From: a phage
Length of the DNA: 64,000 nt
Sequence record: PZ445527.1
Reading direction: 5' to 3' (one strand)
Shown: positions 1,379-53,585 of the stretch, piece after piece
Position numbering within the stretch: the first letter of the stretch is position 1
How the letters are laid out: each line of letters begins with the position of its first letter
Made by a program: the position numbers and the translations under genes
Notes under the pieces: model-generated
What the model was told of the DNA's origin: nothing
Seen by the model: only the letters and a program-made list of their open reading frames with translations
The model's database searches: none

Positions 1379-1719
1379 GGGAGACGCCATACGTAATTAG
1401 CTGTCTGTAGGACCATAGGAGTACCATTATGGTGCATTACTACAGACGTTGGAGAGTAACTATTCGCCAGTTCTGTACGAACCATCTCACGTTCTTCTCC
1501 AGTTTCAATATTTTTAACAACCACCTTCATTTTGAGAGGTGTCAGTTCAGAGAGCGGTTTCCAAGAGTCCTCAATTTCAATTCCTACCTTTTTCTCAATT
1601 AACATGAGAACTTCTAGTGTATCATCTGGAATACTAATATTATTATTTACAAACTGTAACAGCTCATGCAAAGTATTTAATTCGTTGAAATTAAGTTTCA
1701 TCTTTAAGAATATCCTCAA
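1375..1719 (-). CDS. hypothetical protein (114 aa)
   Basis: Minus-strand ORF in a tightly packed gene chain. Confidence 0.55.
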   Translation of the reverse strand: MRIFLKMKLNFNELNTLHELLQFVNNNISIPDDTLEVLMLIEKKVGIEIEDSWKPLSELTPLKMKVVVKNIETGEEREMVRTELANSYSPTSVVMHHNGTPMVLQTANYVWRLP

Positions 1720-1936
1720 TCATATCACAGGACTGTTGCAATTCGTCAGCAATGCGCTTAACATCGGTCTTCGTCACTTTACCGATTAACATCACTAGTA
1801 GCATAGAAAATATAACAAGGGGAACTGGAATAACAAATAATGCTACCTTAACTACATTCTTTGGTGCCCATGTATGGTATTTAGTAACTAGAACTCCCAC
1901 CACGATTAGATAAAATGCTAGAATAAACATCATCAT
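1691..1936 (-). CDS. small membrane protein (81 aa)
   Basis: Minus-strand ORF with two predicted TM helices and an overlapping junction. Confidence 0.5.
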   Translation of the reverse strand: MMMFILAFYLIVVGVLVTKYHTWAPKNVVKVALFVIPVPLVIFSMLLVMLIGKVTKTDVKRIADELQQSCDMIEDILKDET

Positions 1937-2214
1937 TTTTTAATCTCCGTAATTATCTGTGCACGCATTACTTTATTAGGTAATTTTGTATTCCCAGCTA
2001 TTGCTTCAATATTATTTAGTTTTTCTTTAAGAATATCTGAGCGTCTTTGTGCTAATTCAATATCTTGCTCTTGCTCTAGTAACCGGTGGTGTAGCCCATC
2101 ATTAGTAATGAGCATACTTTCCATGTTTTTTCGTGCGTTTACAATCCCAATAACTCCACCAATCGCTACTAGCGTAGTAAGAACCAGTAACCCAATAAGA
2201 ATTTCAATCAACAT
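1933..2214 (-). CDS. membrane-anchored coiled-coil protein (93 aa)
   Basis: N-terminal TM helix (LIEILIGLLVLTTLVAIGGVIGI) followed by a helical domain. ATGA overlap with the downstream ORF. Confidence 0.55.
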   Translation of the reverse strand: MLIEILIGLLVLTTLVAIGGVIGIVNARKNMESMLITNDGLHHRLLEQEQDIELAQRRSDILKEKLNNIEAIAGNTKLPNKVMRAQIITEIKK

Positions 2215-49793: not shown

Positions 49794-49803
49794 GAAAACA
49801 ATT

Positions 49804-49826
49804 AGCCCCTATATGGGGCTTTTTGT
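49804..49826 (+). terminator. rho-independent terminator
   Basis: AGCCCC-TATAT-GGGGCT stem followed by TTTTGTG. Confidence 0.8.
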
Positions 49827-49843
49827 GTATTTGGGATATGTAA

Positions 49844-50152
49844 ATGAGCGAACAGGTAAATCAAAACTATGAGGGACACGTTGATGACCAGTCCATCATA
49901 CTTTGGGAGAAGGAGGGGGAACAAGTAAGATTAACAGTATCTGAATTTCGTGGGAATCTATACATGGGTATTCGTTACTGGCTTCTTGATATTAATGATG
50001 AGTGGTTTCCAACGAAATCTGGCTTCTCTTTTCCTTACACCCTAGAAACAACATCACAGCTTTTCTATGCGTTTACACAGATTCTTAGCGAATCTGAGGT
50101 TTTACATGAAGTACAGAAACGAGCTGAAGAACTCAAAGCCAAGAATGCCTAG
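49844..50152 (+). CDS. PC4-like ssDNA-binding protein (102 aa)
   Basis: PC4/YdbC-type core VRLTVSEFRGNLYMGIRYW...WFPTKSGFSF. A PC4-like protein is known in T5. Confidence 0.7.
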   Translation: MSEQVNQNYEGHVDDQSIILWEKEGEQVRLTVSEFRGNLYMGIRYWLLDINDEWFPTKSGFSFPYTLETTSQLFYAFTQILSESEVLHEVQKRAEELKAKNA

Positions 50153-50168
50153 TTCTTGGCTTTTTCTT
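50137..50168 (+). terminator. rho-independent terminator overlapping the stop codon
   Basis: AGCCAAGAA-7 nt-TTCTTGGCT stem followed by TTTTCTTT. Confidence 0.8.
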
Positions 50169-50179
50169 TATAAATGTAT

Positions 50180-50208
50180 TTGCTTTCAACTCAGTTTTGT
50201 TATATAAT
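50180..50208 (+). promoter_or_regulatory. T5-type early promoter (TTGCTT-17-TATAAT)
   Basis: Hexamers and spacer read directly. Confidence 0.8.
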
Positions 50209-50239
50209 ATTTATATAAATTAATGAGAGATATAAATAA

Positions 50240-51211
50240 ATGACTAATGTAAAAGAATTTATTAAACGCTGTCAAGAAGCATATTATCAAGGCATGTCTT
50301 TAATCTCTGATGAAGAATATGATCGTCTGGTAAAACGCTTCCCGTTAGAGGAAGAGATCGGGCCTAAGGGTGATATTCCACACCTATATCGTATGTATTC
50401 TTTACAGAAAGTTTATTATAATCGTGGGGATAAACCACCATTCAATCCTTTAGGTCAGGTGGAAACCGATAAGTTAGATGGTTGTGCAATTTCTCTGCTA
50501 TATATTAACGGTGAATTTGTTCAAGCATTAACCCGTGGTAACGGTATTCTGGGGAATGATGTCACAAGCAACGTAAGATTGCTGAACATCCCTAAAAAGA
50601 TTTCCCAAAAAGTACCTACCCAAATCACTGGTGAAGTTCTAATTACAAAGGAAGTAGAAAATAAACGTAACTTTGCCTCTGGTGCTATTAACCTCAAAGA
50701 TAGCAATGATTTTGTACAACGCATTGGAGAAGGCGGTTTAATTTTTGTTGCTTATGGTATCCAATGTTCTGCTGAATCTGTAGGTATTACAGAAGCATAC
50801 TTAAAAGATATGCTTTGGCTAGAGAATGAGAACTTCTTAACAGTTGTTAATGTACGTTCCTTCTTTAAATGGATTCCAACCGACGGTAAAGTTGTTCGTA
50901 TTAATGATAATAATAAATTCTTCCGCGAAGGGTGGACTAATAAATTCCCTCGTGGAGCATTCGCTATTAAAGAGGATGAAGAAGGCGAGATTACAACTCT
51001 TACTAAAGTTGAATGGGCGACAGGAGCGTCTGGTAAAGTAACTCCAGTTGGTTATTTCGAACCGGTAATTATTGATGATGCAGTTATTACAAAAGCCACC
51101 CTTAATAATGTAGATTATATTAAATCACTAGATTTAGAGATCGGATGTCAGATTAGAGTAGTACGTGCAGGCGGTGTGATACCAAAGATTGTGGAAAGAG
51201 TTTATGAATAG
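50240..51211 (+). CDS. ligA: NAD-dependent DNA ligase, N-terminal part (adenylation plus OB fold, 323 aa)
   Basis: Ia-domain start, KxDG adenylation motif (ETDKLDGCAISLLY) and OB-fold end VRAGGVIPKI. Stops before the Zn finger. Confidence 0.85.
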   Translation: MTNVKEFIKRCQEAYYQGMSLISDEEYDRLVKRFPLEEEIGPKGDIPHLYRMYSLQKVYYNRGDKPPFNPLGQVETDKLDGCAISLLYINGEFVQALTRGNGILGNDVTSNVRLLNIPKKISQKVPTQITGEVLITKEVENKRNFASGAINLKDSNDFVQRIGEGGLIFVAYGIQCSAESVGITEAYLKDMLWLENENFLTVVNVRSFFKWIPTDGKVVRINDNNKFFREGWTNKFPRGAFAIKEDEEGEITTLTKVEWATGASGKVTPVGYFEPVIIDDAVITKATLNNVDYIKSLDLEIGCQIRVVRAGGVIPKIVERVYE

Positions 51212-51845
51212 CGGAGTTTATCCACTGATAGTAAAAGGATATAAATATGTTGGCTATTCCAGAAATATTGATAGAAGGTTTAAGGAGCATACATATACTT
51301 ATGTTACTAATCTAGGTCATATAGACTCCCATATCCCGAGAAACTTACTAGGTGTACAGGTACAGAAGTCAGATATAAGCATAGAAATTCTAGAGTATAT
51401 TTCTCCGGAAGAGAGTACTGATGTATTTTTAAGGGCAGAAGATTTGTGGATACAGAGGATTTGTCCAGAGCTAAATACAAACGTTCCTTTATCTAACTTA
51501 GTCGAAGCAGTAGAATATTGTATTTCAAACCCATCTGAAACGTATAAATCAGCGGCCTCAAAGTTCAACATTACACCTAAAATGTTAGAGCATGTTGCCT
51601 CTGGAGGATATAACTCCTTAGGATGCATTTTATCAAGAAGTACTTTAGAACTATTTCGTAGTAAGAAATATAAAGAACTAATATTAGTACACGAAAATGG
51701 GGCTAGGTTTGTAGCGACGTCTTACCTTGAATTACATAGATTATCTGGGCTAGATAGGCATAGAATATCTGACCTACATAAAGGCAAGTACCCCACCTTT
51801 AAAGGGTGGACCCTTTTAACCCCATCTACCATATCGGAATTATAA
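51204..51845 (+). CDS. GIY-YIG homing endonuclease inserted between the ligase halves (about 213 aa)
   Basis: GIY-YIG core GVYPLIV..YKYVGYSRNIDRRFKEH. ATGAATAG overlap with the ligase-A stop. Confidence 0.8.
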   Translation: MNSGVYPLIVKGYKYVGYSRNIDRRFKEHTYTYVTNLGHIDSHIPRNLLGVQVQKSDISIEILEYISPEESTDVFLRAEDLWIQRICPELNTNVPLSNLVEAVEYCISNPSETYKSAASKFNITPKMLEHVASGGYNSLGCILSRSTLELFRSKKYKELILVHENGARFVATSYLELHRLSGLDRHRISDLHKGKYPTFKGWTLLTPSTISEL

Positions 51846-51853
51846 AGTGGTTA

Positions 51854-51882
51854 TTGACATTTTCGCCGCTTAGGTATATACT
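51854..51882 (+). promoter_or_regulatory. sigma70 promoter (TTGACA-17-TATACT)
   Basis: Consensus -35 box and 17-nt spacer. Followed by an RBS and an 8-codon mini-ORF (MARVSKVN). Confidence 0.65.
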
Positions 51883-51946
51883 ATTATCATTCAGTTGAGG
51901 GATAGAAAGTTATGGCGAGGGTAAGCAAAGTTAATTAAAATTGTAG

Positions 51947-51975
51947 TTGCTAAATGCTTAAATACTTGCTATAAT
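51947..51975 (+). promoter_or_regulatory. T5-type early promoter (TTGCTA-17-TATAAT) for the ligase C-terminal part
   Basis: Hexamers read directly; conserved leader and AAGGAAG RBS. Confidence 0.8.
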
Positions 51976-52005
51976 ATTTATATAAATTGATAAGGAAGAA
52001 ATTTG

Positions 52006-52773
52006 ATGAAAATCGAAATTCCAACACAATGTCCCTCTTGTGGTTCTAAGCTAGATCTTGTCAACGGACAATTATTCTGTCGTAATAAGTCCAACTGTCC
52101 AGCGCAATCAAGTAAGTTAATTGAGAACTTCTGTACAAAAATGAAGTTAAAGGGCTTTGGCCCAAAAACTATTGAGAAGCTGGAGCTGACGAAGATTTCA
52201 GAACTATTTTACCTAACCGAAGAAGATTTGGTTAGAGCCGTGGGTAGCAAGGTTGCCGCTAAGTTAATTAGCGAATTAAATACTAAAGTTCGCGGAGACA
52301 TTGACTTTGGTTCAGTTCTCGGTTCTTTAGGAATCCCTCTGATTGGAGAGGTTGCAGCAAAGAAATTATCCCAAAATTGCACTAGCTTCCACGATGTGAA
52401 GGCTGACGGCAAGGCTGGAGAAAACTATAAAGCCTGGCTAAATTCCCCACAAGGCAAGGATGTAATCGAATTACCGTGGAAATTCTCAAAGGGTGTTAAA
52501 GCTGACATCATTACTGATGGTCTAGTAGCTCAACCAAATGGAATCGCGGTATGTATTACCGGATCTTTGCAAGATTTTGCAAATAGAACGGATGCAACAA
52601 ACTATTTAGAAAGTCTAGGGTATACGGTTAAGAAATCCGTTACTAAAGACGTCAAATACCTAATCTGTGAGGATGAATCAAAACGTTCTTCCTCATCTTA
52701 TAAGAAAGCCGAAACGAATGGGATAGAAATCCTGTCGATTAAAGAACTATTGGAGAAAAATAATAATGTCTAA
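52006..52773 (+). CDS. ligB: NAD-dependent DNA ligase, C-terminal part (Zn finger, HhH, BRCT; 255 aa)
   Basis: CPSCGSKL...CRNKSNCPAQ zinc finger, HhH-like GFGPKTIEKL/GIPLIGEVAAKKL and a BRCT-like ICITGSL...KYLI. Confidence 0.85.
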   Translation: MKIEIPTQCPSCGSKLDLVNGQLFCRNKSNCPAQSSKLIENFCTKMKLKGFGPKTIEKLELTKISELFYLTEEDLVRAVGSKVAAKLISELNTKVRGDIDFGSVLGSLGIPLIGEVAAKKLSQNCTSFHDVKADGKAGENYKAWLNSPQGKDVIELPWKFSKGVKADIITDGLVAQPNGIAVCITGSLQDFANRTDATNYLESLGYTVKKSVTKDVKYLICEDESKRSSSSYKKAETNGIEILSIKELLEKNNNV

Positions 52774-53533
52774 ACTGAACTGGAACGTAGAAGGTGTAAC
52801 CGAGTCTCTGAAAGCAAAAGCCACTGCTCTGGGTGTTGCTGTAATCTCTCAAGAACAAGTAGCTGCTATCGCTGCTGAACTGGCCGCTGAAACTGGTAAA
52901 GATGTTACCGCTCGCTCTGTTGGCTCTAAACTGCGTAAAGAAGGTTTTGAAGTACAAAAAGCTAACGAAGTACAGAAATCCCCGTGGACTCCTGAGCAGG
53001 AAGCTGAACTGGTTGATTTCCTGAACGCTCATGCTGGTCAGTATACCTATGCTGAAATCGCTGCTGCTGTAGCTGGTGGTCAGTTCGGTGCTAAGCAGGT
53101 ACAGGGTAAGATTCTGAGTCTGGAAATGACCGCTTCTGTTAAACCAACCGAAAAAGCTGCTGCTGTTCGTTCCTTCACTCCGGATGAAGAAACTGATTTT
53201 GTTAATCAGGTTGTTGCTGGTGCTACTATTGAAGCTATCGCTGCTCACTTCGGTCGTAATATCAAGCAGATCCGTGGTAAAGCTCTGAGCCTGCTTCGTG
53301 AAGGTCGTATCGCTGCTATGCCGGTACAGGAAACCTCAAGTGCTAAAACTCGTGAAGATCTGTTAGAAGGTCTGGATCTGGTTAACATGACTGTTGCTGA
53401 GATCGCTGAGAAAACTGGTAAGTCTGAGCGTGGTGTTAAATCTATGCTGTCTCGTCGTGGTCTGGTTGCTAAGGACTATGATGGTGCCGCTAAGCGTGCT
53501 AAACTGGATGCAAAAGCTGCGGCTGCTGAATAA
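52766..53533 (+). CDS. abundant Ala-rich DNA-binding protein with four helix-turn-helix-like repeats (255 aa; possibly the T5 D5 equivalent)
   Basis: Four internal repeats ending VGSKLRKEGF, VQGKILSLEM, IRGKALSLLREGRI and VKSMLSRRGLV. Extreme gct/ctg/ggt/cgt codon bias. Confidence 0.65.
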   Translation: MSKLNWNVEGVTESLKAKATALGVAVISQEQVAAIAAELAAETGKDVTARSVGSKLRKEGFEVQKANEVQKSPWTPEQEAELVDFLNAHAGQYTYAEIAAAVAGGQFGAKQVQGKILSLEMTASVKPTEKAAAVRSFTPDEETDFVNQVVAGATIEAIAAHFGRNIKQIRGKALSLLREGRIAAMPVQETSSAKTREDLLEGLDLVNMTVAEIAEKTGKSERGVKSMLSRRGLVAKDYDGAAKRAKLDAKAAAAE

Positions 53534-53551
53534 TCTGGTAAATTAAACCTA

Positions 53552-53585
53552 AGGGGTGGGGGCTATGCCTCTACCCCTTTTTGCA
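53552..53585 (+). terminator. rho-independent terminator
   Basis: An 11-bp stem AGGGGTGGGGG/CCTCTACCCCT followed by TTTTTG. It lies inside the N-terminal extension of track ORF 53556. Confidence 0.8.

Follow-up and report, generated by a model that had tools for sequence, protein, structure and literature searches.

The window analysed here is a 64,000-nucleotide (nt) stretch of phage DNA (sequence record PZ445527.1). Our subject is its NAD-dependent DNA ligase locus, in which the enzyme is encoded by two genes, ligA and ligB, with a predicted free-standing GIY-YIG homing endonuclease gene (HEG) in the gap between them. The window belongs to a T5-like phage (Tequintavirus); the region shares about 95.5% identity with T5, as it does with many Tequintavirus genomes from Salmonella and Escherichia phages, and no record identical to it was found among the T5-like matches. 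The features of the locus, including one short open reading frame (ORF), are listed below.

50180..50208, plus strand: ligA promoter, TTGCTT-17-TATAAT, read from the sequence; it matches the "promoter" feature at locus 1561..1635 of T5 AY543070.
50240..51211, plus strand: ligA, 323 residues ending in VRAGGVIPKIVERVYE before the stop; N-terminal ligase subunit with the nucleotidyltransferase domain and OB fold.
51030..51211, plus strand: diverged 3' tract of ligA, delimited by its mismatch profile and synonymous divergence (dS) against T5 and interpreted as a tract of co-conversion or immunity; the HEG would take its ribosome-binding site and ATG from the last ~35 nt.
51204..51845, plus strand: predicted free-standing GIY-YIG HEG, 213 residues; I-TevI-like catalytic domain and I-HmuI-like helix-turn-helix DNA-binding region.
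51811..51845, plus strand: last 11 codons and stop of the HEG, placed by alignments; read from spacer sequence that is also present in endonuclease-free T5.
51854..51882, plus strand: promoter P-K28b, TTGACA-17-TATACT, from a consensus scan and annotated in T5 AY543070; its -35 element starts 8 nt past the endonuclease stop.
51912..51938, plus strand: 8-codon mini-ORF (MARVSKVN, then stop), read from the sequence and unannotated in T5.
51947..51975, plus strand: promoter P-K28a, TTGCTA-17-TATAAT, from a consensus scan and the T5 AY543070 annotation, followed by the AAGGA ribosome-binding site of ligB.
52006..52773, plus strand: ligB, 255 residues starting with MKIEIPTQCPSCGS; C-terminal ligase subunit with the Cys4 zinc finger, HhH and BRCT parts.

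The two ligase genes were examined for their domains and for the position of the break between them. LigA contains the NAD-ligase adenylation domain (PF01653, E 1.3e-23), with KLDG as its KxDG motif at residues 78-81 (lysine K78), and the OB domain (PF03120, E 1.9e-21) at residues 252-321 of 323. LigB carries the zinc finger cysteines C9, C12, C26 and C32 (CxxC...Cx5C, residues 9-32) and matches the Pfam HhH (E 3.1e-5) and BRCT (E 5.7e-8) domains. These coordinates and domains agree with an earlier note on this DNA, which had described a ligase in two ORFs, the first (50240..51211) ending after the OB fold and the second (52006..52773) starting at the Cys4 zinc finger. LigA and LigB are 97% and 96% identical in amino acid sequence to the T5 proteins and match the two chains of a deposited structure (9hu3_A, E 6.5e-103; 9hu3_B, "DNA ligase subunit B", E 1.7e-81). 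When the C-terminus of LigA and the N-terminus of LigB were concatenated, the alignment was colinear with the single-chain LigA structures 1V9P, 1DGS and 8AK4, with a single 6-residue gap at the break, in the OB-Zn linker. The break is therefore at a domain boundary, with no tail added to either half, and the endonuclease gene does sit at this boundary, as the note had said. The window ligB (52006..52773) is 12 nt, or 4 codons, shorter than ligB of T5, SP3 and RUS_R2 (255 versus 259 residues; compared with L001 2815..3594).

The gap contains two promoter-consensus sites that coincide with P-K28b and P-K28a of T5; these are the two promoters of the earlier note. Spacer alignments showed that both ligB promoters are kept in sequence in T5, Klebsiella phage Sealy and Enterobacter phage KKP_3711. 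In addition, blastn revealed a block, TATAATATTTATATAAATT, that is identical in the ligA promoter (50203..50221) and P-K28a (51970..51988) and extends from the -10 element into the leader. This common block suggests duplicated initiation signals that would keep both ligase halves co-expressed. LigA and LigB are separately translated. The two promoter-consensus sites of the gap are annotated in T5 and kept in three lineages, and the -10/leader block is common to the promoters of ligA and ligB. That the enzyme is made of two polypeptides, as had been claimed, is in line with the "subunit A/B" annotation in T5 and with the two-chain homologue in the PDB. By analogy with that homologue, we infer that the two halves would associate non-covalently and seal nicks with NAD+. 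The mini-ORF is present as the note reported, and its importance was overstated: its ATG is missing from the homologous spacers of Sealy, the metagenomic contig L010 and KKP_3711, whereas the promoters are conserved. A function as leader peptide was rejected since the ATG is not conserved outside Tequintavirus, and the mini-ORF is probably incidental.

The split ligase itself is already known and is no artefact, given the T5 annotation, the published gene lists and a two-chain PDB entry. In the T5 records (AY543070, AY692264 and AY587007), the same two genes with the same OB-Zn linker break are annotated as "subunit A/B", P-K28b and P-K28a lie in tandem in a gap of ~200 bp without an endonuclease gene, and the neighbours are the same, with a PC4-like gene upstream and D5 and dnaB downstream. 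Ligase subunits A and B are listed routinely for T5 and T5-like phages (PMC3632103; PMC4319617). PDB 9HU3/9I5I, which shows the same break, consists of two chains, "DNA ligase (NAD(+))" of 339 residues and "DNA ligase subunit B" of 248 residues, homologous to LigA and LigB; no paper for these entries was found in our literature search. The split has thus been in GenBank since the T5 genome records, and a homologue has been solved as a structure, so the novelty given to it in the earlier note was too high.

The spread of the split was examined with a junction-spanning probe in a tblastn search of 50,697 phage records, of which 1145 matched. The same split is present in ~600 Demerecviridae records and in more than 1000 phage records overall. 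Two ligase genes were found in every T5-like match sampled, from phages of Escherichia, Salmonella, Klebsiella (Sugarlandvirus), Providencia, Enterobacter (KKP_3711) and Vibrio (Athena and 70E35-1), and the only probe matches with a one-piece ligase came from unrelated phages, jumbo phages and cyanophages among them. The gaps of the Vibrio phages hold a DprA-like gene (Athena gp57) and small unknown ORFs unrelated to the endonuclease. The possibility that these ORFs are degraded endonuclease genes was considered and rejected, with no similarity detected by hhalign or BLASTP. The OB/Zn linker was already split in the ancestor of Demerecviridae, and the split is independent of the endonuclease gene. 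Since the split is family-wide and both promoters are conserved across lineages, the two-gene, two-promoter architecture is, on these comparisons, ancestral and functional.

We examined the gap ORF using both single-sequence and family-level comparisons. Its ATG (51204) overlaps the ligA stop TAG (51209-51211) within TATGAATAG. The window protein alone gives a borderline Pfam GIY-YIG match (22.7 bits versus a cut-off of 22.6), and no PHROG match was found for it. However, a profile of the protein and its relatives matches the I-TevI catalytic domain over the full domain (1MK0, E 9.5e-19; 1LN0, E 1.6e-18) as well as the DNA-binding region of I-HmuI (1U3E, E 1.6e-4). G4, Y6, Y15, G17, R25, H29, E79 and N91 are invariant, and the GIY-YIG catalytic residues are invariant across 10 family members. 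An AlphaFold2 model from an 8-sequence alignment reached a predicted local distance difference test score (pLDDT) of 86.7; it superseded a single-sequence model that was unusable (pLDDT 43.5). The family profile and the structure model make the GIY-YIG assignment firm beyond the borderline Pfam match, and together with the ORF map they bear out the GIY-YIG gene at 51204..51845 that the note had described as overlapping the ligA stop. The protein combines a GIY-YIG fold with conserved Tyr, Tyr, Arg, His, Glu and Asn and a separate helix-turn-helix (NUMOD-like) DNA-binding region. Its gene lies between the ligA stop and P-K28b, outside any intron or intein. An Rfam search of 49800-53200 with E up to 1 found no intron-like or other RNA family, the only match being one chance fragment of a small RNA; with no intron-like RNA, the HEG is free-standing. 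We conclude that the gap ORF is predicted to encode a Seg-like, free-standing protein of the GIY-YIG homing endonuclease type.

Two characterised enzymes are close enough for comparison. The catalytic fold and residues match those of I-TevI (T4 td; 1LN0/1MK0), the catalytic domains being ~21% identical, and the C-terminal part is similar to the DNA-binding region of I-HmuI (1U3E). Unlike I-TevI, the window HEG is not intron-encoded and no I-TevI-type zinc-finger linker is evident. In GenBank, the product of this gene is called "hypothetical protein" or, wrongly, "ligase subunit A". The wrong annotation occurs in SP3 (L003, MG387042, 1820..5125), and the name has spread to its nr/UniRef cluster (P0001).

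All detectable relatives of the HEG protein, few in number, are encoded at the same site. An exhaustive HMMER scan of 1.84 billion representative proteins returned 8 matches, two of them strong: P0002 (53% identical) and P0003 (36% identical). The genes of both lie in the ligA-ligB gap of T5-like metagenomic contigs, one Sugarlandvirus-like (L010) and one KKP_3711-like (L011). In 5.8 billion proteins, a word-indexed search recovered the SP3 cluster alone; two IMG/VR scans likewise gave SP3 only, and a JGI metagenome scan found no relative. Klebsiella phage AmPh_EK80 and Serratia phage Kamaji carry a second sub-lineage in the same position, again overlapping the ligA stop by 8 nt; its identity to the first is 21-27%, and the two are colinear over the full length (hhalign probability 99.2%). 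In Kamaji (L017, ON287373), the gap ORF is annotated from locus position 1600, which leaves out the GIY motif; read from the ATG at 1498 that overlaps the ligA stop (ORF 1498..2214), the protein starts with MSSGLYRIT... and has a complete GIY-YIG domain. A GIY-YIG lineage that is small and had no name so far appears to be dedicated to the ligA-ligB gap in at least four Demerecviridae lineages, namely Tequintavirus, Sugarlandvirus and the Serratia and Enterobacter types. Our literature search found no paper on an endonuclease gene in a T5-type ligase gap.

The relationships within this lineage do not follow those of the phages. L010 and EK80 are 90% identical in LigA and 27% in the HEG protein, while EK80 and Kamaji are 61% identical in LigA and 54% in the HEG protein. 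The HEG tree and the phage tree thus disagree, so the HEG moves between lineages. The ratio of nonsynonymous to synonymous substitution (dN/dS) of the HEG is 0.11-0.13 for the window or RUS_R2 versus SP3, which shows purifying selection. Site fidelity, tree incongruence and purifying selection together indicate an active, laterally moving element instead of a relic.

Presence and absence of the HEG were compared among close relatives of the window. In T5, 34 bp stand in place of 626 bp of the window (51184..51809) that include the HEG. Only 3 of 444 related T5-like records have it, these being Salmonella phages SP3 (two accessions) and vB_Sen_SG_WM_RUS_R2; the other 441 have ligA and ligB adjacent, the same two promoters and no HEG. 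The earlier note had proposed a comparison of T5-like genomes, and the two ligase genes indeed lie next to each other where the GIY-YIG gene is missing. Empty sites are seen in T5, Sealy and KKP_3711, and diverged ligA flanks in three pairs of genomes with and without the HEG.

The window and T5 form the first of these pairs. Their ligA genes differ at 0-3 positions per 60 nt over most of the length and at 11-18 per 60 nt in the heavily recoded last ~180 nt; dS is 0.91 in this 3' tract versus 0.22 upstream, and the protein hardly changes. RUS_R2 shares the tract at 99% identity, SP3 and Spc35 at ~89% and ~460 other T5-like phages at no more than 84%. In the second pair, L011 with the HEG and KKP_3711 without it, the LigA proteins are 95% identical. 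Their ligA genes show 0-4 mismatches per 60 nt over 720 nt and then 10-19 per 60 nt over the last ~240 nt. For the final 246 nt dS is 1.35, versus 0.086 upstream, and immediately 3' of the HEG stop identity is 98.4%. The excess divergence at synonymous sites is thus 4- to 16-fold over 180-240 nt in two lineages. In the third pair, EK80 with the HEG and Sealy without it, there are 12 mismatches in the last 60-nt window of ligA versus 0-5 elsewhere, clustered, as judged by eye, in the last ~35 nt. We read the one-sided diverged ligA tract abutting the HEG as a probable trace of co-conversion. On the other side of the window HEG, identity to T5 resumes inside its last 11 codons, and its TAA is part of the T5 spacer and precedes the -35 element of P-K28b by 8 nt. 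The L010 relative ends at a stop of its own, directly ahead of this spacer motif, which means that a small deletion removed the original stop of the Tequintavirus HEG.

Comparison of the ligA ends also points to the start signals of the HEG. All alleles with the HEG except that of L011 read ...GTGGAA(A/C)GAGTnTATGA(A/G)TA(A/G), and those without it read ...GTAGA(G/A)CG(A/C)GTnTACGAnTAA. The recoded ligA end thus carries the ATG of the HEG and a purine-rich Shine-Dalgarno-like stretch, and the predicted start signals are inside this recoded end in most HEG lineages. The HEG start codon falls within the final codons of ligA in five of the seven HEG-carrying genomes examined and in three of the four lineages. 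No terminator-like site was found in a window scan between the ligA promoter and the HEG, so that translational coupling on the ligA transcript is the most likely route of HEG expression. We considered an RNA hairpin masking the HEG ribosome-binding site, similar to that of mobE, and rejected it; the fold of 51150-51270 gave a z of +0.66, and a small local stem is not conserved in L010.

We propose with considerable confidence that we see the two-gene NAD-dependent ligase locus usual for a T5-like phage, into which a free-standing GIY-YIG HEG was copied in the spacer after the ligA stop, upstream of both ligB promoters. The endonuclease would cut HEG-free T5-like genomes in or near the ligA 3' end during co-infection. 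Repair from a genome with the HEG would then copy it together with 35-240 nt of ligA by co-conversion. The recoded ligA end may shield the carrier from self-cleavage, and it would also provide the Shine-Dalgarno sequence and ATG of the HEG (GTGGAAAGAGTTTATGAATAG), whose translation would be coupled to that of ligA on the ligA transcript. The ligase halves would assemble non-covalently as in the solved homologue.

Several observations weigh against parts of this proposal. The location of the target is taken from where alleles with and without the HEG differ, and the assembly of this LigA/LigB pair is argued by analogy. In L011, the HEG has a GTG start abutting the ligA stop without overlap, and the overlap is thus not universal. 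Spc35 is without the HEG and yet the last ~35 nt of its ligA, with the ATG, are of the HEG type, so recoding of ligA alone does not require the HEG. This ligA end could be the footprint of HEG loss, a partial co-conversion product or the allele in which the HEG first landed. Moreover, the T5 spacer holds 35 nt homologous to the last 11 codons of the HEG, which also fits loss of the HEG from T5 instead of gain in the window. The ligA 3' end of Spc35 (L004, HQ406778, 1390..1680) is itself a patchwork of window-type and T5-type segments that ends in the endonuclease-type TTTATGA.

The proposal agrees with what is known of the SegA-SegG endonucleases of T4-type phages, which are free-standing GIY-YIG HEGs associated with "intronless homing" (PMC2988022), SegB among them (PMC2330249). 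Alike are the I-TevI-like catalytic domain fused to helix-turn-helix DNA-binding modules, the absence of an intron or intein, the position between conserved replication genes, the flanking co-conversion tracts and the sporadic occurrence among close relatives. The one-sided ligA mosaic abutting the HEG, here read from sequence alone, fits the intronless homing and co-conversion of T4 Seg and Mob endonucleases (PMC2988022, PMC2330249). In contrast to the Seg genes, the window HEG is without detectable sequence relatives outside the Demerecviridae ligase gap, and in four of five lineages the start codon and ribosome-binding site of this type of HEG are inside the recoded upstream host gene.

A different origin has to be weighed, in which the HEG or its ancestor fractured a one-piece ligase at the OB/Zn linker and most descendants lost the HEG and kept the two genes. 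The precedent is nrdA-a/mobE/nrdA-b of Aeromonas phage Aeh1, a case of "genes-in-pieces" in which an HNH insertion caused the split, cutting across the active-site barrel and leaving tails without which the halves do not assemble (PMC3045599). The two loci are alike in that an HEG lies between the halves of an essential enzyme of DNA metabolism, and the Aeh1 halves are translated separately and assemble (PMC3045599). The strict site fidelity of the GIY-YIG lineage, which occupies exactly the ligA-ligB gap in five phage lineages, would agree with such an origin, as would the 35 nt homologous to the HEG 3' end retained in the T5 spacer and the HEG-type ATG retained in Spc35. However, the T5-type split predates the GIY-YIG gene, lies in an inter-domain linker and is fixed across a phage family, and no insertion-derived tails are found on LigA or LigB, unlike Aeh1 NrdA. 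Whereas in an Aeh1-type history the split would occur only where the HEG is inserted, every HEG-free member of Demerecviridae examined keeps it, as do the Vibrio phages with their unrelated gap ORFs, and >99% of T5-like records are without the HEG. The HEG always lies upstream of two conserved promoters of the split architecture, which the insertion left intact. The ligA flanks are mosaics from divergent donors and the HEG and phage trees disagree, which argues for recent lateral gain and not for ancient residence. We therefore regard this origin as unlikely. For the present-day element the order is settled: the split came first, and the HEG is a later mobile passenger. Of the two possibilities in the earlier note, endonuclease invasion as the cause of the split is thus not supported, given the same OB/Zn split throughout Demerecviridae, and a pre-existing split site as homing target fits both the 441 HEG-free records and the diverged ligA 3' tracts of the genomes with the HEG. 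It is doubtful that the gap-confined lineage descends from an element that fractured the ligase in the ancestor of Demerecviridae and persisted by cycles of loss and re-invasion; if it did, the T5 ligase would be a family-wide, fixed genes-in-pieces enzyme generated by an HEG. In a milder version, the HEG may be "site-locked", with translation signals that exist only as the recoded form of the last codons of ligA.

It could also be argued that the gap ORF is a decaying or domesticated relic without endonuclease or homing activity and that the diverged ligA tract reflects ordinary recombination mosaicism of T5-like phages. The borderline single-sequence Pfam match, the lack of a PHROG match and the loss of the ORF's own stop, with read-through into spacer DNA, would be expected of a relic, and T5-like genomes are mosaic elsewhere, for example at the ligA 5' end in RUS_R2. 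Since all GIY-YIG catalytic residues are invariant in the 10 family members, dN/dS is 0.11-0.13, and in three independent pairs the diverged tract lies right against the ligA-facing end of the HEG and identity returns directly downstream, we find this explanation quite improbable. The chance is virtually negligible that the ligA stop is an error of sequencing or assembly, or that a single-chain ligase is produced in spite of it through an intron, an intein or recoding. Only the general rarity of split ligases speaks for such a reading, while the same stop, spacer, promoters and ligB start are found in hundreds of independently sequenced phages, which disposes of the artefact that the earlier note had considered. 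In addition, there is no Rfam intron or other RNA family in 49800-53200, the two spacer promoter sites are annotated as promoters in T5, and the homologue is in the PDB as two separate chains. Our preferred explanation thus remains an HEG copied into an already split ligase locus.

What is new at this locus is the unnamed GIY-YIG lineage at one intergenic site across T5-like groups, with predicted start signals in the recoded end of a core gene. T5-like phages are widely used in phage therapy collections, and the ligase gap would lend itself, as a clean natural setting, to work on their intronless homing and marker exclusion. The HEG would also explain a local hot spot of mosaicism in ligA, which is otherwise a Tequintavirus core gene.

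The neighbourhood of the ligase genes shows further variable positions. Directly upstream of the ligA promoter, a terminator-like hairpin of 12 pairs followed by a T-run (50135..50163) closes the transcription unit of the PC4-like gene. The interval between this gene (49844..50152) and ligA, at 50153..50239, is a second variable slot that is empty in the window and in T5. It holds a 62- to 66-residue ORF in Spc35 and RUS_R2, for which the match to phrog_8267 was tested on the RUS_R2 copy only, and an unannotated insertion of similar size in SP3. In Stokescottia the slot contains a 90-residue phrog_35018 ORF, in KKP_3711 a DprA-like phrog_768 ORF and, at the same position in L011, a 197-residue ORF. 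Downstream of ligB, the interval between D5 and dnaB is only a short spacer in the window (53534..53555) and in T5. In RUS_R2 (L002 5192..5773) and in L011 (6350..6859), it is occupied by an HNH endonuclease gene, so that a further landing site for endonucleases lies within a few hundred bases of the ligase gap.

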